Below, piece after piece: positions 1 through 7,336 of a stretch of DNA of 64,000 nucleotides (its first letter is position 1; each line of letters starts with the position of its first letter). The stretch is taken from positions 8,703-72,702 of the forward strand of contig CAJTNL010000010.1 of the NCBI GenBank assembly GCA_910577755.1. The letters run 5' to 3'. The position numbers and the translations under genes were made by a program. The notes under the pieces are model-generated. The model worked only from the letters and a program-made list of their open reading frames with translations, was not told the DNA's origin and ran no database searches. The stretch is from an uncultured Eubacteriales bacterium (lineage in GTDB: Bacteria > Bacillota > Clostridia > Oscillospirales > Acutalibacteraceae).

Positions 1-1812
1 ATCGAACACGCGCTGAACGCCGGTTTGCATTTTATCGTCATTGTGGACGAAAACCATCAGAACAATACGCTGAAAGCGGATGAAATCATCCAGTATTTCC
101 ATATGGACAAGATTATCCGTTGTTCCGCTACGCCGAAAGGTATCAAAAATGCGGAAATCATAGAAATTCCTGAAGCGGATGTTATTGCTGAAGGGCTTAT
201 CAAAAAAATGCTCATTATCAATGAGAATTTTCCGCAGCAGGTGGAAATGGAGAACGCAACCAGCTATCTGTTAGAACAGGCTTATACCAAGCAGCGTGAA
301 ATCCGTGCAGAATTCCTTTCCGCCGGAAAGGACATTAATCCTTTGATCGTGGTGCAGATTCCAAACAAATCGGAGAAATTGCAGGACGATGTGGAACGCT
401 GGTTTGAAACGCAGAGCGTAACCTATGAAAACGGTCAGCTTGCGGTGTGGCTCTCTGATATGCACGAAAACTTAGAGGGCATTGAAGAAATCAATGCTCC
501 CTCTGTTGCTGTTATTATCAAGCAAGCTGTTGCCACGGGTTGGGACTGTCCGAGAGCTGCCATTTTGGTGAAGCTCCGTGATAATATGGATGAAACCTTT
601 GAAATTCAGACCATTGGGCGTATTCGCCGTATGCCGGAGGCACGCCACTACGGCAAAGATTTGCTGGATAGCTGTTATCTCTACACTTTCGATGAAAAAT
701 TCACCGCCGGTGTCAAGCTGAGCCTCGGTAAAGGGGCTTTGAAAGCAGATACCTTGTTCCTTAAAAATGAGTATAAAGGCATTACCCTGACCTCCGAACA
801 GAGAACGATGGTGACGGATCACCGTAATCCGAAAAAGGCTCTGCTTTCTGTAGCAAAGTATTTTGAAGAAAAATTCAAGACCGGCTCGAATAAGGCGGAG
901 AACAAGAGACGCTTGCAGACGGCGGGATTTGAATTTAGAGCCGATATTCTGCGTCACACCCTTTCGGGTGAAACTGCAACCTTGAATTTTGCTTCGGCAG
1001 ATATGAATACGGTCGTCATTACCGAAAAGCTGAATACCCACGATCACGGTCATATGTACCATCAGAAGGTGGGTAAAATCGGTATGGAGATCGGAATGGA
1101 ATACAGCTATATGAATACGATCATTCGTAAGCTGTTTGATCGCAATTTTACATACAGCCGTAAAATCCTCGCAATGGAGCCGAGAGAAGTCTACGCCTTT
1201 GTAATTAATAACGCCGATCTGCTGCGCCATACGGTGCGTGAATCAATGGCAGCGGAACTGGAACAGCTTACCCTTGATATTGATCAAGTATCCAAGGTGC
1301 CGTTTCGAATCCCACAGTCCTGCCTATTTACTTATGACGGTACAGCAAAAACGCAGTTGGAAATGAAGAAAAATGTATATCAGGGCTACCTTTCCTCTGC
1401 GGAAATCCGTTCCTCCTCGGAACGCAAATTCGAGAAATTCTGCGAAAAGTGCGATGCTGTGGAATGGGTATATAAAAATGGTGATAAAGGCAATGAGTAT
1501 TTGTCCATCGTATATGCGGATAATTCGGACAAGCAGAAGAATTTCTATCCTGACTATATAATCAGCGTGAACGGTGAAGTTTGGATCGTGGAGACTAAGG
1601 GTGGCTTTGACCGCAGTGGCAATAGCCAAGATATTGACATTTTCACGCCGAAAAAATTCGCTGTGCTGAAAGATTATTTGGAACGCTACAGCTTAAAGGG
1701 TGGTATTGTCCGTTATGACGAAAAAAGTGAAGAACTATGCATTTGTATGGACAGCTATTCCGAGGATATTAACAGCGATAGCTGGGTTGTGCTGAGTGAT
1801 ATTTTGAAGTGA
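1..1812 (+). CDS. SF2 DExH-type helicase with C-terminal PD-(D/E)xK nuclease signature, type III restriction Res-like; 5' end lies outside the window
   Basis: Frame 1 is open from nt 1, and FIVIVDENHQ (helicase motif II) precedes the first Met of the ORF track. Later motifs are SATP (motif III), GWDCPRA and QTIGRIRR (motif VI). The C-terminus has YPDYII...WIVETKG, a D...ExK nuclease pattern. Assignment is by motif recognition only. Confidence 0.7.
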   Translation: MEHALNAGLHFIVIVDENHQNNTLKADEIIQYFHMDKIIRCSATPKGIKNAEIIEIPEADVIAEGLIKKMLIINENFPQQVEMENATSYLLEQAYTKQREIRAEFLSAGKDINPLIVVQIPNKSEKLQDDVERWFETQSVTYENGQLAVWLSDMHENLEGIEEINAPSVAVIIKQAVATGWDCPRAAILVKLRDNMDETFEIQTIGRIRRMPEARHYGKDLLDSCYLYTFDEKFTAGVKLSLGKGALKADTLFLKNEYKGITLTSEQRTMVTDHRNPKKALLSVAKYFEEKFKTGSNKAENKRRLQTAGFEFRADILRHTLSGETATLNFASADMNTVVITEKLNTHDHGHMYHQKVGKIGMEIGMEYSYMNTIIRKLFDRNFTYSRKILAMEPREVYAFVINNADLLRHTVRESMAAELEQLTLDIDQVSKVPFRIPQSCLFTYDGTAKTQLEMKKNVYQGYLSSAEIRSSSERKFEKFCEKCDAVEWVYKNGDKGNEYLSIVYADNSDKQKNFYPDYIISVNGEVWIVETKGGFDRSGNSQDIDIFTPKKFAVLKDYLERYSLKGGIVRYDEKSEELCICMDSYSEDINSDSWVVLSDILK

Positions 1813-1813
1813 G

Positions 1814-2512
1814 GTGAAAGTCTTGAAGATAACTGACCACAAGGTGTTAACCGAGTTTTCTCCTGCAAAAGTTCAATTTTTCAGAATAGATCCTGAAGAT
1901 ATTTCAGTAACATTATCAGATATTTTGCGTACTCTTATGGACTTGTCTTGGCTCAGTAAATTCGATCAAGACTTTGAACAGAAAGCATTTGCCTCCCGTG
2001 CAAAAAAAACTATTGATGATATTAAAGAAAAGTTTGACAAATGCGTTGATGACAATATCAGCAAAGATGCTGGTGAGTATGTGGTATCTGAATTAGCCAG
2101 AGAAACTATGGTATCAAAACTGGACTATTTAGATATTCCTCTTGATGAAATTGTTGGTAAAAAGCGTTCTGGAAATCCTGGGTTTGATTTTCATTCACAA
2201 AACAAAATTACGGATACGGTTATTTTCGGTGAAGCAAAGTATATTGCCGCTACTACGGCGTATTCATCGGCATTGCCACAAATTGTCGATTTTATCAGAG
2301 ATGGAAAAGATGTTGAGGATCTTCCTGAATTAAAACCGTTCTGTACAACATCGGCTTTGCAAAGAGCAGCCGATGGAAAAAAGGGATTTTCCGCTGCGTT
2401 TTCAGCAAAAACTACAAGTACAGATAGAATAATCGCTAACATTACGAAGCGCCCGGACTTTCAATCGTTACTTCAATATGAAGAACTCATTTTGGTGGCG
2501 GTGGACTTATGA
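1814..2512 (+). CDS. hamA: HamA-like (DUF1837-type) PD-(D/E)xK nuclease, Hachiman component
   Basis: 232 aa. Carries an E...D...ExK pattern (GEYVVSELARE, GNPGFDF, FGEAKY). Sits directly upstream of an SF2 helicase and overlaps it by ATGA. Start is GTG 1814, or TTG 1823 behind GAGGTG. Not HMM-verified. Confidence 0.6.
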   Translation: MKVLKITDHKVLTEFSPAKVQFFRIDPEDISVTLSDILRTLMDLSWLSKFDQDFEQKAFASRAKKTIDDIKEKFDKCVDDNISKDAGEYVVSELARETMVSKLDYLDIPLDEIVGKKRSGNPGFDFHSQNKITDTVIFGEAKYIAATTAYSSALPQIVDFIRDGKDVEDLPELKPFCTTSALQRAADGKKGFSAAFSAKTTSTDRIIANITKRPDFQSLLQYEELILVAVDL

Positions 2513-4830
2513 ATACTGTTTTAGAAAAGGGCAATATCATTGCCAAAATCAGAAAAGGGGAAGATTTGGATCAGATTATCGATTGTGTCAAATCCGAGAT
2601 TTATCAAAATGGTCCCAACAGCTCTGTAGTTTTGGAAATAGTGTCATATTTTAAATTATTCCAACCAGAGTTTTTCAAAAAGGACGAGCAAGAGATCATT
2701 GCCACGATGGGGCTGTTTTTCAAACAGCCCAAAATCGAAAGCCTTACAGGATCAGTCTTTGAGATATATCATCAGCAACTCAAGGACGAATTTGGCAATG
2801 ACTATACACCAATGCAGGCAGATATTCTTAAGAAGATTCGAGATTTACAGTACTTCAGTTTTTCAGCACCAACAAGTACAGGGAAATCATTTGTATTTCG
2901 ACATCTTATTACTGATTGTTCTAATGATGTGGTTGTCGTCGTCCCCTCAAGAGCACTCATTAACGAGTACTACGACCGATTGAACAGTCTTGTAGACGGA
3001 AAAGCTGTGAATGTCCTAACTTTTGTTGATAGGATTAATACAAAACATATTTACAGGAATATTTTTATACTGACACCTGAGCGTGCAAAAGAGCTGTTCA
3101 AAAATAAAGATTGGCTAAAAATTGATTTGATTTTGTTTGATGAAGCTCAACTTAGCGATGAACACTCGGTGCGAGGTCTCTATTTTGATAGTATTGTAAG
3201 GCGAGCACTAAAGTATTTTCCTGATGCAAAATTCGTTTTTGCACATCCTTTCATTGAAAATCCTGAAGCGCAATTGCAGAAGAATGGCATTGAAACCATT
3301 GATACAACGGCAACATACAGCAATTATGAATTAAAAAATGTAGGACAGATTTTTTATACCCATGACACCAAAAACCAAGGATTCTATCATTTTGGTAGTG
3401 ACCCTGCAACACTTGGAAAACGCAAGCTGGAAGCAAACTTTGATCCTATTGAGTCCGTACTGAAAAAGGGTGGTAGCGTACTGATCTATGTGCCAAAGTC
3501 ACATATTTATAGTAAGCAAATATACAGTCAATTCGAAAAGTATATTTCTATGTGCCAACCAATTAATGATCCTATTGCAATAAAAATGATAGATGAGCTA
3601 AAGGAGTATATTGGTGCTTCAACAACCGATAAGTTATTTTATAACTCTGATATGCTGGAAAAACTGAGATGCGGAATTGTTGTTCATCACGGTTCAATGC
3701 CATTGACAGCCCGTTTGATATTAGAGCATTTTACGCAGCAGCGCTTCTGTAAAATCTGCTTTGCTACTTCTACACTGGAGCAGGGAATCAATATGCCATT
3801 CGATGTGGTTTATCTTGACCGCTTCGAGGAAAGTAAAACACTTTCTGTAAAAAATTTGATTGGTAGAGCCGGTCGCTCTACCAACAAACCCGTATTTGAT
3901 TTTGGTAGCGTCATTTTGCGACCAAATGCAATGAGTAGATTCCGAAAAGTGTACCGCAAGAAAAATACTCTTTCGTCAAAATCTCGATTAGATACGACAG
4001 ATGATAAAATGGATGAGAAATATGAGGAGTACAAAGAAGCAATCAAAACAGGGGAATTCTCTGACGAGTATAATCTTACAAATAAAGATCTTGAGAAATT
4101 AAAGTCAGATAGTGTTACTACGGTAGTTCCTACATTGTTGGATATGATGTTTACTGATGCAGGCTTTGTGTTGCCTAATGCAGTAGCAAAAGAGGTGTAT
4201 GAGGACTTCCAGTGCTTATACAAGCAGTACTTAGGCCGAGAACTAACCGCAGCAGAAAAATTTGTTTTTGATTCCGCCATTAAAATAATGATCTGGAAAG
4301 TGCACGGTAAAACATTTAGTAAGATTTGTCAAGAGAGATATGCTTATGTTTCCAATGTTGCCCAACGGCGATTATTGTCACGAGCAGGTCAACGAGATCG
4401 TGCTGATAGCCTGACAGTTCGATACATTGCAGGTTATAGTGATATTCCGGATAAAGAATTGCGTACTTTCCCCTTATTCCCCGCTGAAACAAAAGGTAAA
4501 GATGTCGATTACGACCGTGTTGTCTATGATACATATGATTTTCTCGATAAACTTATAGGATTTAAGCTGAGTGATTTGTTCTATGCGATTTTCCATCAGT
4601 ATTATCTTGCGTATCAAGACGATCGTGCTGAGAGGTTGGCAAAGTACATCAAATATGGAACGGAAGACTCAACTGAGATATGGATGTTACGATATGGGTT
4701 TTCTTTTGAGGAAATTGAATGGTTAAAGCCTTGTGTTGAAAGCATTGATCAAATGGAAATTAAATTTAACGAAAAAATTGAAAATCTCAGCGATGCTCAG
4801 AAAAGTAGTATTTTAAAATTTATTTTTTAA
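2509..4830 (+). CDS. hamB: HamB-like SF2 (Ski2/DExH-like) helicase, Hachiman component
   Basis: 773 aa with Walker A APTSTGKS, motif II DEAQ, motif V TSTLEQGINMP and motif VI GRAGRS. ATGA start/stop overlap with the upstream small nuclease gene. Confidence 0.65.
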   Translation: MNTVLEKGNIIAKIRKGEDLDQIIDCVKSEIYQNGPNSSVVLEIVSYFKLFQPEFFKKDEQEIIATMGLFFKQPKIESLTGSVFEIYHQQLKDEFGNDYTPMQADILKKIRDLQYFSFSAPTSTGKSFVFRHLITDCSNDVVVVVPSRALINEYYDRLNSLVDGKAVNVLTFVDRINTKHIYRNIFILTPERAKELFKNKDWLKIDLILFDEAQLSDEHSVRGLYFDSIVRRALKYFPDAKFVFAHPFIENPEAQLQKNGIETIDTTATYSNYELKNVGQIFYTHDTKNQGFYHFGSDPATLGKRKLEANFDPIESVLKKGGSVLIYVPKSHIYSKQIYSQFEKYISMCQPINDPIAIKMIDELKEYIGASTTDKLFYNSDMLEKLRCGIVVHHGSMPLTARLILEHFTQQRFCKICFATSTLEQGINMPFDVVYLDRFEESKTLSVKNLIGRAGRSTNKPVFDFGSVILRPNAMSRFRKVYRKKNTLSSKSRLDTTDDKMDEKYEEYKEAIKTGEFSDEYNLTNKDLEKLKSDSVTTVVPTLLDMMFTDAGFVLPNAVAKEVYEDFQCLYKQYLGRELTAAEKFVFDSAIKIMIWKVHGKTFSKICQERYAYVSNVAQRRLLSRAGQRDRADSLTVRYIAGYSDIPDKELRTFPLFPAETKGKDVDYDRVVYDTYDFLDKLIGFKLSDLFYAIFHQYYLAYQDDRAERLAKYIKYGTEDSTEIWMLRYGFSFEEIEWLKPCVESIDQMEIKFNEKIENLSDAQKSSILKFIF

Positions 4831-4880: not shown

Positions 4881-4912
4881 AACGGCGGCAAGGATTTCTT
4901 CCTGCCGCCGTT
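4881..4912. terminator. Hairpin between convergent hamB-like and tnpV genes (bidirectional terminator)
   Basis: aacggcggcagg (4881-4892) pairs perfectly with cctgccgccgtt (4901-4912), a 12-bp GC-rich stem. Confidence 0.6.
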
Positions 4913-4917
4913 CTAAG

Positions 4918-5307
4918 TTAGTTGTAAATTATATTGTGATTCACGATTTCTGTTGCTCTGCTTTGGATGTTATTCATTTGCACAACCCACTTCATTTGAT
5001 TATCCGATTTGAGTCGTTTAGTCACACTTTCACGCTCTGCCATCTGATTTATCAGTCTGATAAACATACCTTCTGCTTGCTCGTTAATATCAGCAAGATA
5101 ACTGTTGAGTTTACCGCTTGTGAGCAAATTCATATACAACACTCTATGATTTTGCTTTAGGTAGTGGCGGTGTCGTTGTCCCCATAAACTGACAGGCTTA
5201 TTTTCTTTTTCGGATAGTAAGGTAAAGCAGGGAATAAGATAATCACCTTGCTGTTCGTATGTACAGCCCATCTGTTCAAATATTGTCTTTTCCATAAACT
5301 TAAACAT
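4918..5307 (-). CDS. tnpV: Transposon-encoded protein TnpV family
   Basis: 129 aa. GDYLIP...WGQRH..YLKQNH...LLTSGKLNSYLADINEQAE...MKWVVQMNNIQSRATEIV matches the TnpV family of clostridial transposons and ICEs as I remember it. Confidence 0.8.
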   Translation of the reverse strand: MFKFMEKTIFEQMGCTYEQQGDYLIPCFTLLSEKENKPVSLWGQRHRHYLKQNHRVLYMNLLTSGKLNSYLADINEQAEGMFIRLINQMAERESVTKRLKSDNQMKWVVQMNNIQSRATEIVNHNIIYN

Positions 5308-5479
5308 CCATTATCTTAATTCTAAATTTCTTAATCGTTGCGTGAGCAAATTTGATAATGAGTTCATCAACTGCATCTGTATATCCTCCGTCTGCAATGA
5401 GTTTATTTTTCAAATTGTTCAGACTCTCGATAATAATGCTGTACTCATAATCATCAATCGCTATGTAGTATTTTGACAT
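5300..5479 (-). CDS. Small hypothetical protein (59 aa), co-transcribed with tnpV; below the ORF-track size cutoff
   Basis: ATG at 5479 and TAA at 5300-5302. Translation is MSKYYIAIDDYEYSIIIESLNNLKNKLIADGGYTDAVDELIIKFAHATIKKFRIKIMDV. AGGAGG lies upstream (5493-5498). There is an 8-nt overlap (ATGTTTAA) with the tnpV start. Confidence 0.5.
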   Translation of the reverse strand: MSKYYIAIDDYEYSIIIESLNNLKNKLIADGGYTDAVDELIIKFAHATIKKFRIKIMDV

Positions 5480-5931
5480 CGCATATTTCTTGACCTCCTT
5501 TGCCTAAAGTGTAACAAAGAAATTCTTCCTTTGCGAATGTGCGATTTTTTTTTGAACATAGAGAAAGACAGCGTAAAAAGCATTTCTGCCTTCTACGCTG
5601 TCTTTTCGCCTTTGCAACGCCCATAAAGTTTTGTTTTGATGTGTTTTTCAAATTACTGCCTTATGCGGCGTTGGCATTTGACTATACCTTTTTTTTACCG
5701 ATTATCGCACATATAGCAAAAGATTTTTTGTATGGTTATGGACGGATTATGTTTTGCTATGTCGTGCTTAAGTATGGGTGTTTTCATTTTTTGAGTAAAT
5801 ATATTTTTACTCTGGATATATGATATGTCCTATTTGAAACTTTTAAATGTTTTAAAATTTAACTTTTCTTTATATATGGTTTTTGCTGTACGTTGATTAA
5901 CTTTTTTAAACCAATTGTGTTTTTTGTTATA

Positions 5932-5986
5932 AAAACAGCACCCTTTTGGTTTAAGTGTATTGCATAATTCGAAAAAGGTGCTGTTT
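5932..5986 (-). terminator. Hairpin downstream of the MATE gene
   Basis: aaaacagcaccctttt (5932-5947) pairs with aaaaggtgctgtttt (5972-5986), directly after the stop at 5990 on the minus strand. Confidence 0.5.
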
Positions 5987-5989
5987 TAA

Positions 5990-7336
5990 TTATGTTGTTG
6001 TAAAAGCTTTAGATTTTTTAATTTTGTGAAAGTATAAAAATGCCATAGCAACCAGAAATGTGAGAAGTTCAGCAACAGGAACTGCATACCAAATTGCGTC
6101 TGTACCAAACATAAGAGGGAACGTAGCTACCAGTATGGAGCTTAATACAAGACCTCTTAGCAAACAAACGACGATTGCTGCAACCGGACGAAGAGTGGAT
6201 TGAAAATATCCACTGAAAAAAATATTAAAGTTCATAAACAGATAAGAAAAGAAGTAAATACGCAGAGCACTGGAAGCCAGAGCCAAAATTTCGTCTGATG
6301 GGTGGTTCATAAAGGCATAGGTTAATATATTGGGGAAAAAGAAGCCGAAAATGAATAGCACTAAGGCAATAATACTGGAGGTAATTGTACCAATATGGCG
6401 TACCTGTAATACTCGCTTATGATGACCAGCACCGTGGTTGGTAGCTATAATAGGTTGTGCTGTCTGTGCCACACCGTTAAATAAAGACATACATACAATA
6501 GAAATGTTTGCAATCATACTGTATACGCTTAATCCAATACTACCGATGTATTTTAATAATGTAATATTAAAGACAAATACAAGTACAGCATTGGCGCACT
6601 CTATTAAGAAGCTGGAAAAACCGCATTTTATAATTTCCCATAAGGTCTTAAAGGAAAAGCAGCGGAAAGAAAAGTGCATGGTATTTTTTTTAGAGAAAAA
6701 GTGAAGCACCAGAATACCTATGGTGATAATAGTTCCAATAACAGTTGCTAAAGCACCGCCAAACATACCCATGTCCAGCGGAAAAATAAATAAATAATCC
6801 AGTCCAATATTGATGGCCGAGCCTACTAAAACACCAATCATTGCCAGTTTGGGAGCTTTATCGTTACGCAAAAAACATTGAAGACTAGCAGAAAAAATAA
6901 ATGCAGGAGCAATGAGTGTATAACAAATGCCATAACTACGGACTAACTCAATATTTGTTTCGTTAGCTCCCAATGTGTACATAATAGGATCGAAAAATAT
7001 GATGCAAAAAGCGGAGAGACATATGCTGACTGCGGCTGCAACCATCATAACGGTGGAAAAATATTTATGAGCTAATTGCTGGTTACCGCTGCCCTTTGCA
7101 ACAGACATTAAAACACCACCTCCAACACCAAGCAATAACCCTATGGCAAAAAAGGATGCGATGATTGGCATAAAAATATTAATTGCAGAGAGACCTGTAT
7201 CTCCAACACCTTGACCTATCATAATGGTATCTACTAGCACATATATGGACGTAACAAGAGATGAACCAATAGATGGTCCTAAATAGTGAAAAAATAATCG
7301 ACGTGGAGAATCTGTAAATAGATTGACTTGTTTCAT
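5990..7336 (-). CDS. MATE family efflux transporter
   Basis: 448 aa, polytopic membrane protein. The N-terminus (RRLFFHYLGPSIGSSLVTSIYVLVDTIMIGQGVG) is typical of MATE/NorM-like proteins. Confidence 0.85.
   Translation of the reverse strand: MKQVNLFTDSPRRLFFHYLGPSIGSSLVTSIYVLVDTIMIGQGVGDTGLSAINIFMPIIASFFAIGLLLGVGGGVLMSVAKGSGNQQLAHKYFSTVMMVAAAVSICLSAFCIIFFDPIMYTLGANETNIELVRSYGICYTLIAPAFIFSASLQCFLRNDKAPKLAMIGVLVGSAINIGLDYLFIFPLDMGMFGGALATVIGTIITIGILVLHFFSKKNTMHFSFRCFSFKTLWEIIKCGFSSFLIECANAVLVFVFNITLLKYIGSIGLSVYSMIANISIVCMSLFNGVAQTAQPIIATNHGAGHHKRVLQVRHIGTITSSIIALVLFIFGFFFPNILTYAFMNHPSDEILALASSALRIYFFSYLFMNFNIFFSGYFQSTLRPVAAIVVCLLRGLVLSSILVATFPLMFGTDAIWYAVPVAELLTFLVAMAFLYFHKIKKSKAFTTT

Follow-up and report, generated by a model that had tools for sequence, protein, structure and literature searches.

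Related defence systems

The Hachiman system consists of HamA, a DUF1837 nuclease, and HamB, a Ski2-like helicase (Tuck et al., 2024, PMC12278908). Active-site residues are E138/K140 in HamA of Escherichia coli ECOR31 (PMC12278908) and D127/E147/K149 in HamA of S. thermophilus (PMC13064477). In the 'extended Hachiman' of the Pez-Ham type, an upstream module represses Hachiman and is dispensable for defence (Tian et al., 2025, PMC13064477).

The locus described here opens a window of 64,000 nucleotides, the whole stretch of DNA that was analysed, and covers the 3′ three-quarters of an operon of four genes, mod-res-g2-g3. As in HamAB of ECOR31 (PDB 8VX9; Tuck et al., 2024, PMC12278908), a gene for a small nuclease precedes one for a helicase in overlapping frames, and more distant relatives of g2-g3 are found as standalone pairs. 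The two proteins are compact, 229 and 773 aa against 259 and 1174 aa for ECOR31 HamA and HamB, and in the g2-g3 clade, unlike in Hachiman, the pair is joined to the 3′ end of a type III restriction-modification (R-M) operon. The Streptococcus Pez-Ham and AbiJ-Ham loci (PMC13064477) likewise have an unrelated upstream module in one operon, with a gap of 18 bp compared with 1-10 nt here, and in both cases pairs of the same subgroup also stand alone. The upstream module, dispensable for defence there, would be dispensable here as well. The partners differ: the extended Hachiman of one genus has a toxin-antitoxin pair upstream, and the present association, which spans several phyla, has an entire type III R-M system, a defence that targets DNA in its own right.

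Gene organization

The features of the locus are as follows.

1..1812, + strand: res (gene 1), 3′ part (603 codons) of the gene for a type III restriction subunit of 728 aa, with its 5′ end outside the window
1811..1816, + strand: Shine-Dalgarno-like GAGGTG, overlapping the res stop, 6 nt 5′ of TTG 1823
1823..2512, + strand: g2, 229 aa (232 aa counted from GTG 1814)
2509..4830, + strand: g3, a 773-aa HamB-like helicase of the Ski2/Hel308-type SF2 class
4881..4912, no strand assigned: GC-rich hairpin between the convergent g3 and TnpV-like gene
4918..5307, − strand: TnpV-like gene, a mobile-element gene outside the defence operon, given for context

The junctions, the motifs of genes 1 to 3 and the hairpin that a first-pass annotation of this DNA had reported are all present. 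The stop codon of res, TGA at 1810-1812, is followed by GTG at 1814, and g2 (end 2512) overlaps the ATG of g3 (2509) by ATGA. The annotation had placed the g2 start at this GTG, 1 nt after the res stop. Database gene calls, including those of the 613-member cluster P0002, begin at the equivalent of TTG 1823, which is probably the true start; GTG 1814 then becomes part of the Shine-Dalgarno sequence and is not a start codon. With the TTG start the two genes remain tightly spaced (10 nt), and translation of g2 is likely coupled to that of res at GAGGTG.

The close packing resembles that of a single transcription unit, as the annotation had it, and co-transcription of mod-res-g2-g3 is inferred. 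Within the operon, promoter-like matches are about as frequent as expected by chance (25 against 26.3), and so are terminator-like matches (8 against 7.6). The hairpin at 4881-4912 folds at −27.5 kcal/mol (z = −5.77), and none of 200 shuffled sequences was as stable. As no T-tract follows directly, the hairpin differs from a textbook intrinsic terminator, although the operon probably ends here.

The type III restriction-modification genes

The locus had been described as a three-gene unit, with the suggestion that a Mod methyltransferase gene be looked for upstream of gene 1. Such a gene is found outside the window on identical contigs (L001:5438-7114), where it ends 3 nt before res (L001:7118-9304 at full length, 728 aa, truncated by the window start). 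It matches PADLOC MTase_III at 2.9e-96 and PF01555 at 1.8e-22, and AbiEi/AbiEii lie directly upstream of it. Gene 1 is therefore part of a canonical mod-res pair and the unit comprises four genes.

By its motifs and similarities, gene 1 is the predicted Res subunit of a type III R-M system, in agreement with its earlier designation. Res matches PADLOC REase_III at about 1e-15 (7e-16, and 1.7e-15 for the part in the window) over the helicase core only, and the full-length protein matches Pfam ResIII (PF04851) at 1.3e-17. Within the window it displays the motifs VDENH, SATP, QTIGRIRR and PDY...VETK. Among 12 Res proteins of 55-83% identity, SPTGSGKT, DE(N/S)H, SATP and QTIGRIRR are invariant, as is the C-terminal PDY...E-T-K nuclease pattern. 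No PDB relative of Res was found by sequence. In Foldseek, the top matches of a model of the C-terminal part (pLDDT 60.6; 60-89 in the domain) are the nucleases Bax1, Can2 and Hjc, all PD-(D/E)xK, with probabilities up to 0.99 and E values of 4e-3 to 1e-2, which lie above the 1e-3 level. Sequence and model together point to an SF2 ATPase core followed by a putative C-terminal PD-(D/E)xK nuclease domain.

The mod-then-res order, and a Res protein that combines a ResIII SF2 ATPase core with a predicted C-terminal nuclease, are as in EcoP15I-like (Mod2Res) type III systems. Typical type III Res proteins have roughly 870-1000 aa; with 728 aa the Res described here is compact, and its operon differs in running on into further defence genes.

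Linkage and independence of the two halves

The four-gene order is present at 25 genome loci, in Clostridia, Paenibacillus, Gardnerella, Gastranaerophilaceae and Selenomonadaceae, and one further, incomplete locus (L029) has Res-g2-HamB at a contig end. In the genomes, wherever the DNA upstream of a g2 homologue with 52% identity or more can be read, Mod-Res precedes it, except at a locus from which Res is deleted (L019). The identities of Res, g2 and HamB drop together, from 96% to about 55%, a pattern of co-divergence. Where the genes are intact, the gaps between res and g2 range from −31 to +17 nt; g2 and HamB overlap by 4 nt in nearly all homologous loci. The deepest branch of the Res tree carries g2-HamB, and the four-gene order looks ancestral on that tree.

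The halves are nevertheless separable. Metagenome loci were drawn from the closest 80 of 517 Res relatives; among these, g2 follows Res in 53 of 75 close Mod-Res loci and is absent from 22, and Mod is present at all 68 of 68 Res loci. Conversely, g2-HamB occurs without Mod-Res at all eight of the distant loci examined, as a standalone pair with unrelated neighbours on both sides and an upstream gap of 250-330 nt. At one locus (L075) g2 is truncated and HamB absent, with the R-M genes intact. An obligate co-occurrence of Mod, Res, g2 and HamB was thus not found. The nuclease motifs of Res are kept with or without g2 behind it, g2 retains its D/ExK, and g2 and HamB are of equal length in linked and standalone loci; in linked loci, Res, g2 and HamB show no sign that a redundant domain or an active site has been lost. 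That each half also occurs alone speaks for two stacked immune systems and not for one new machine. The first-pass annotation had considered simple adjacency. The halves do come apart, but chance adjacency understates an order that is held across phyla and over this range of divergence.

A variable cargo slot in a mobile element

The operon is cargo of a mobilisable element with relaxase, NikA, ParB_N, TnpW and TnpV genes. The TnpV-like gene matches phrog_24764 at 7e-47 and, on identical contigs, Pfam TnpV. It forms the conserved right flank of the cargo slot, and its homologues also border loci with other cargo. Behind the same Res family are found DUF6338, DUF4238, an AbiTii/AbiTi fusion, unknown genes (467 aa; 193+416 aa; 159 aa; 388 aa), canonical Hachiman, or nothing. 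This canonical Hachiman, a lineage seen at L122 and L128, gives matches to HamA PF08878 with 40.6 bits and to HamB1 at 4e-100.

In this family of elements, the site directly behind res thus holds variable cargo, which is probably transcribed and translated along with the R-M genes. The slot between res and tnpV, where known defence genes or candidates for such genes replace one another, resembles defence islands and cargo hotspots, as do AbiEi/AbiEii upstream. Two features set the slot apart from these: the cargo lies inside the R-M operon at translational-coupling distance and has no separate transcription unit, and g2-HamB is the prevailing type of cargo and has diverged together with Res.

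Two stacked systems or one pathway

These observations are probably best explained if a mobile element carries, stacked in its cargo slot, two autonomous systems: type III R-M and a divergent pair of genes resembling Hachiman. The first-pass annotation had raised two possibilities, stacking of res onto Hachiman within a defence island and a functionally integrated variant; the evidence favours the former. Mod would methylate the host DNA, and Res, as an ATP-dependent SF2 motor, would cut unmethylated incoming DNA with its own PD-(D/E)xK nuclease. By analogy with characterised HamAB, g3 may keep the g2 nuclease in check; on meeting damaged or free-ended DNA, g3 would allow g2 to become active and to degrade DNA indiscriminately. 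The arrangement was likely retained because co-expression from a tightly controlled R-M promoter would limit Hachiman toxicity, because the two layers may add or synergise, or for both reasons. The R-M/Hachiman pairing is old, recurrent and kept in many lineages, and neither half needs the other.

Two points weigh against stacking. Overlapping or near-overlapping frames kept over about 45% divergence are more than is usual for neighbours in a defence island, and the presence of two Hachiman lineages behind the same Res family hints at a specific affinity between R-M and Hachiman that pure stacking does not predict. An integrated 'restrict-then-shred' pathway has been considered, in which the free or damaged ends that Res makes in unmethylated phage DNA load and activate the HamB-like helicase and the HamA-like nuclease then destroys the invader, so that Mod indirectly gives a self/non-self discrimination absent from Hachiman. 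The apparently ancestral four-gene order at translational-coupling distances is consistent with such a pathway, as is the second, canonical Hachiman lineage in the same position; restriction enzymes make DNA ends, and HamAB is reportedly triggered by DNA damage or ends (PMC12278908). The pathway is unlikely all the same, as both halves are found intact alone, unrelated cargo (AbiT, DUF4238, DUF6338) occupies the slot too, neither half has gained or lost a domain that would mark dependence, and a literature search found no report of such a system. Synergy through DNA ends is also possible without operon linkage, and stacking permits it equally. Improbable, too, is a functionally coupled two-stage unit in which DNA ends from the restriction of unmethylated phage DNA license the otherwise indiscriminate HamAB-like pair, with self/non-self discrimination supplied indirectly by Mod; if real, this coupling would explain why Hachiman of two lineages has been kept behind Res over deep divergence.

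Assignment of g2 and g3

Stacking as favoured here takes g2-g3 to be Hachiman-like. As proposed in the first-pass annotation, g3 is, on sequence similarity, a HamB-type helicase. Its best PADLOC match is HamB1 (PDLC00190) at 6e-56, with about 20 (at least 15) further HamB models. Other matches are to Pfam DEAD, ResIII and Helicase_C, to phrog_6819 (3e-59), and in the PDB to 9wh1_B (1.2e-27) and HamB 8vx9_B (4.4e-8). The motifs APTSTGKS, DEAQ, TSTLEQGINMP and GRAGRS are present, helicase motifs I, II and VI among them.

The small protein g2 is best read as a divergent, predicted HamA-like PD-(D/E)xK nuclease. It displays GEY..SE, GFDFH and FGEAKY. Catalysis is predicted to involve E88, D125, E140 and K142 (numbering from GTG 1814); in 98 relatives of 26-43% identity, D125, E140 and K142 are invariant and E88 is nearly so. 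The D...ExK active site is common to g2 and ECOR31 HamA. Clustered at 50% identity, the family forms 286 clusters, and gut Firmicutes contain it in abundance. The HamA part of the proposed pair has held less well than the HamB part: g2 of the window falls below the threshold of every HamA/DUF1837 model, with no match in Pfam, PADLOC, NCBIfam or PHROGs at E ≤ 0.1 and none to DUF1837/PF08878, a result that the annotation itself had taken to count against its reading. The link to HamA is remote at best and comes from family-level and profile-profile comparison. Seven of the 98 relatives match Pfam HamA (PF08878; best 1.1e-5) and up to eight match PADLOC HamA models, and hhalign aligns the family with canonical HamA (P = 7.5e-4, probability 25%) over 196 collinear columns, pairing the g2 catalytic residues with E96/D130/E152/K154.

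It has also been considered that g2-g3 is not Hachiman at all but an unnamed nuclease-helicase system, in which a Ski2/Hel308 core is shared with HamB and the nuclease arose apart from DUF1837. The failure of g2 to match HamA directly in the four libraries and the low hhalign probability would fit this. Further, searches of the PDB with g2 family profiles do not retrieve HamA, and Foldseek of the AF2 model of g2 (pLDDT 88.8) gives weak PD-(D/E)xK-type matches and no significant match to solved HamA (8zue_A at rank 10, TMq 0.37). HamB models cover only the helicase core of g3 (residues 92-537), and g3 is shorter than the 884-1078 aa of three canonical plasmid HamBs examined. This alternative is quite improbable, however: in PADLOC the top matches of g3 are to HamB in the great majority and not to other helicase families, the relatives of g2 match ten different HamA models plus Pfam HamA and no other family repeatedly, every catalytic position is matched in the collinear alignment, and gene order, 4-nt overlap and size ratio are those of hamAB. 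HamA is, moreover, inherently divergent; the structure of E. coli HamA is retrieved at just 3e-7 by a HamA profile of the Bacillus type, and 4g6u is the best structural match of g2 and of bona fide S. thermophilus HamA alike.

Implications

The g2 family delineated here is a group of HamA-like nucleases overlooked by current Hachiman detectors, and rules of the PADLOC style probably leave g2-g3 loci unannotated. The recurrent, translationally coupled R-M/Hachiman operon is a natural system in which to ask what activates Hachiman in vivo and by what means it avoids autoimmunity, and it also suits the question whether DNA ends made by restriction feed second-line nucleases. In this family of mobile elements the 3′ end of an R-M operon can serve as a plug-in slot for exchangeable defence cargo, and the unknown genes found in it are accordingly candidates for defence genes.

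Organization of the operon

The 5′ end of the window carries three closely spaced genes and a hairpin, mapped from the open reading frames and the raw sequence.

Off the window's 5′ end to TGA 1810-1812, + strand: gene 1 (res), type III restriction subunit
GTG 1814 to 2512, + strand: gene 2 (g2), 232-aa open reading frame
2509-4830, + strand: gene 3 (g3), 773-aa open reading frame, overlapping g2 as ATGA
4881-4912: GC-rich hairpin, -27.5 kcal/mol, z = -5.8 versus shuffled sequence

The junctions, the ATGA overlap, the hairpin and all motifs quoted in the first-pass annotation are found in the sequence. The hairpin is far more stable than its shuffles, and a T-run is absent after it. Consensus promoter and terminator matches within the gene block occur at chance frequency, which is compatible with internal signals being present or absent. 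The tight coupling of res and g2 holds, and is equally tight from TTG 1823; GTG 1814, initially taken as the g2 start, is probably part of the ribosome-binding site instead, because GAGGTG (1811-1816) lies 6 nt 5′ of TTG 1823 as a good Shine-Dalgarno sequence and database gene calls start g2 at this TTG, yielding 229 aa. For this reason an exact-sequence database look-up of the 232-aa product gave no match; that of g3 succeeded. A 252-aa antisense open reading frame (472-1230, - strand) lies wholly within res; nothing else supports it, and most likely it is spurious.

The exact g3 protein is present on 22 public contigs; one of them, L001, has the same sequence as the window throughout this region and extends into the DNA upstream of it. 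The full Res is 728 aa (ResIII, 1.3e-17), and gene 1 matches type III restriction-enzyme models. A three-gene operon had been proposed, together with a search for a methyltransferase ahead of gene 1. Such a gene is found on L001: mod encodes a 558-aa type III methyltransferase (PADLOC MTase_III, 2.9e-96; PF01555) and ends 3 nt before res, which makes the genes four. Upstream of mod are AbiEi/AbiEii and, beyond them, NikA, relaxase, ParB_N and TnpW genes (L001:1-2900); downstream of g3 are TnpV and then housekeeping genes (MatE, TrpRS). As Mod abuts res and these mobility genes flank the block, the unit is, judged by its sequence, a four-gene operon, mod-res-g2-g3, that forms part of the cargo of a mobilisable element.

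The right boundary of the element is placed roughly at 5300-5990, since TnpV and 59-aa genes (4918-5900) flank the operon and housekeeping genes (MatE, TrpRS, aminotransferase) begin at ~5990. On the other flank, next to an intact gene for the AbiEii toxin, the open reading frame of the AbiEi antitoxin (L001:3914-4234) is just 106 aa long and aligns with the AbiEi profiles over their C-terminal half alone (100-196 of 198); truncation or a frameshift of the antitoxin, or a mis-called start, may account for this.

The Walker A, DE(N/S)H, SATP, QTIGRIRR and C-terminal PDY...ETK motifs show no variation among Res proteins with as little as 55% identity. No PDB relative of Res was found by sequence. 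A model of the Res C-terminus, of moderate confidence, has exclusively PD-(D/E)xK nucleases (Bax1, Can2, Hjc) as its top PDB fold-search matches (probability up to 0.99, E 4e-3 to 1e-2). Replacement of the Res nuclease by HamA was considered and is rejected on the invariance of the Res nuclease motifs.

Recurrence of the gene order

A scan with the g2-family alignment A1, taking one genome per species, yielded 37 loci. The full mod-res-g2-hamB order is present in 25, from Clostridia, Paenibacillus, Gardnerella, Gastranaerophilaceae and Selenomonadaceae; a further locus, L029, shows Res-g2-HamB and is cut by the contig end. The four-gene set includes every locus with g2 of at least 52% identity and available upstream DNA except L019, which has lost Res and has Mod immediately before g2-hamB. 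The res-g2 gap is -31 to +17 nt in loci with intact genes and larger in the decaying L010 and L013 (frameshifted res); g2 and hamB overlap by 4 nt. Res, g2 and HamB lose identity in parallel, from 96% to about 55%. Divergence of Mod is more rapid (43-79% identity), in line with its variable target-recognition domain. Eight more distant g2 homologues (33-50% identity, plus one at 65%) form stand-alone g2-hamB pairs, with upstream gaps of 250-330 nt and unrelated genes on both sides (DUF3800, copper ATPase, deaminase, AAA_15 ATPase, pilin, amidase).

Several related loci (L018, L022, L024, L025, L028) have a mod-res gap of 380-1200 nt, compared with 2-3 nt elsewhere, which suggests insertion of a small gene or element between the R-M genes.

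Seen from Res, a metagenome scan with a Res alignment gave 517 relatives, of which the closest 80 (74-96% identity) were kept; a further search counted 5690 Res homologues. Among these 80, Mod lies upstream in all 68 loci with enough DNA, and a three-gene Res-HamA-HamB system devoid of methyltransferase is thereby rejected. Among the same 80, only 53 of 75 loci have g2 after Res; the remaining 22 have other content or nothing directly 3′ of res. Thus the linkage suggested by the first-pass annotation is recurrent (25 genome loci) but not obligate, given these 22 loci and the eight stand-alone pairs.

Occupants of the position immediately after res in related loci
DUF6338 gene: 9 Res loci as mapped on the tree
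DUF4238 + 388-aa gene: the 388-aa gene, at L086:6190-7356, has no Pfam or PADLOC match
AbiTii/AbiTi fusion
467 aa: L092:2650-4053; no Pfam or PADLOC match
193+416 aa: L089:8230-10112; no Pfam or PADLOC match
159 aa: L111:8258-8737; no Pfam or PADLOC match
Different, canonical Hachiman: L122 and L128; HamA PF08878 40.6 bits, above threshold; HamB1 4e-100
Nothing: some of the 22 loci

The unmatched genes of 388, 467, 193+416 and 159 aa are candidate new defence genes by position, since the same slot elsewhere holds Hachiman, AbiT, DUF4238 or DUF6338. TnpV flanks several of the other-cargo loci as well. A neighbour-joining tree built from 100 Res sequences has g2-hamB on its deepest branch and in almost every subclade, with the other cargos dispersed between those leaves. 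Most simply, the four genes were together ancestrally and the cargo was then replaced repeatedly. Some shuffling of alleles has occurred, e.g., in L123, where Res is 75% but g2 92% identical. Decay is also seen: L075 keeps R-M with a truncated g2 and no hamB, and L010 has a frameshifted res with g2-hamB intact. Together with L019, these patterns indicate independence of the two halves.

Relationship of g2 and g3 to Hachiman

The earlier assignment of gene 3 as a Hachiman-type helicase is well founded. The protein matches ~20 PADLOC HamB models, the best being HamB1 (6e-56), has DEAD, ResIII and Helicase_C domains, and finds Ski2/Hel308-type helicases in PDB sequence searches, among them HamB 8vx9_B. 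PADLOC Hachiman type II, PDC-M23, SngC and Hma all score far below HamB1. The best solved-structure match of g3 is 9wh1_B (1.2e-27), much better than ECOR31 HamB; this 853-aa chain carries the title 'DNA polymerase theta (Helicase domain only)' (entries 9wh1, 9whk, 9whu), a name probably given automatically to a HamB-like defence helicase of bacteria. A literature search for the code 9WH1 gave irrelevant matches only.

The assignment of gene 2 to DUF1837/HamA is not borne out directly: the protein has no match in Pfam, PADLOC, NCBIfam or PHROGs, an outcome that the first-pass annotation had itself counted as a refutation. Its family is sizeable (624 matches in 90% clusters; 286 clusters at 50% identity). 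In 98 relatives of 26-43% identity, D125, E140 and K142 are the sole invariant residues and E88 is nearly so. These form a predicted PD-(D/E)xK active site, ordered as are the three conserved motifs of HamA (PMC12278908, PMC13064477). Of the 98 relatives, seven score against Pfam HamA and up to 8 against one of ten PADLOC HamA models; matches to any other family do not repeat. Against a canonical HamA profile, built from annotated plasmid Hachiman loci and their homologues, hhalign aligns the g2 family over 196 collinear columns (P=7.5e-4, calibrated probability only 25%) and pairs E88/D125/E140/K142 with HamA E96/D130/E152/K154. HamA itself is extremely divergent; with a Bacillus-type profile, the solved E. 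coli HamA is recovered at no better than 3e-7 and over a partial region.

The AF2 model of g2 is confident (pLDDT 88.8, pTM 0.87). Foldseek returns nothing for it at E<=1e-3, and structural membership in HamA therefore cannot be claimed. The weak top matches are nucleases of the PD-(D/E)xK type. First among the matches is 4g6u, reported to be the closest structure to a bona fide Streptococcus thermophilus HamA too; 8zue_A, the E. coli Hachiman, comes tenth. PDB sequence searches with A1 and the more diverse profile A2 gave chance matches only (ribosomal uS13, cytochrome c), and tblastn of g2 against plasmids gave none. Motif order, family-level matches, the hhalign alignment and the weak fold matches point to a remote g2-HamA relationship. 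It is concluded that g2 is a putative HamA-like nuclease of a divergent branch missed by present models, one that would act like HamA but whose own sequence matches no DUF1837 model.

In L043 the family turns up, as a remnant, in another R-M neighbourhood: a decayed g2 homologue, split into two ~80-aa open reading frames and without HamB (L043:4539-5091), adjoins the gene for a FokI-like type IIS restriction enzyme (L043:1551-3251).

Functional interpretation

Stacking of systems in defence islands is commonplace, and Hachiman has a background frequency of roughly 5%. The best-supported reading is that two autonomous defence systems are probably stacked here in one operon; of the two possibilities raised initially, res stacked on Hachiman is favoured over a functionally integrated variant, as both halves occur independently. 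The type III system would work in the usual way, Mod protecting the host and the Res motor-nuclease cutting unmodified DNA. If g2-g3 works as characterised HamAB does (PMC12278908), the HamB-like helicase would restrain the HamA-like nuclease and free it on meeting damaged or free-ended DNA.

Functional coupling, whereby DNA ends made by Res trigger the helicase-nuclease, is the main rival and appears rather unlikely: it is attractive in that the same Res family precedes two Hachiman lineages, but no observation requires coupling, and the independence of both halves speaks against obligate dependence. That g2-g3 is an unnamed nuclease-helicase system with a mere resemblance to Hachiman is quite improbable, with the empty library searches for g2 on one side and the HamB1 match of g3 on the other.

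With two stacked systems, the 3′ end of the R-M operon behaves like a slot into which interchangeable defence genes of a TnpV/relaxase element are plugged. That the Hachiman-like cargo has persisted for so long is suggestive of selection, for which two reasons are plausible. One is expression control by the upstream module, by analogy with the Streptococcus Pez-Ham operons, in which that module is dispensable for defence and reduces Hachiman expression and cost (PMC13064477); the other is additive or synergistic protection.

Operons in which an unrelated module precedes hamAB, called extended Hachiman, have already been described (PMC13064477). No report of a Mod-Res-HamAB operon was found in the literature, and in a recent survey nuclease-NTPase systems are said explicitly to lack methyltransferases. 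New here are a putative HamA-like family invisible to current HMMs, a recurrent R-M/Hachiman operon, predicted to be translationally coupled and spanning phyla, and a defined cargo slot behind res. The operon represents a clean natural system in which to test the triggering and regulation of Hachiman.
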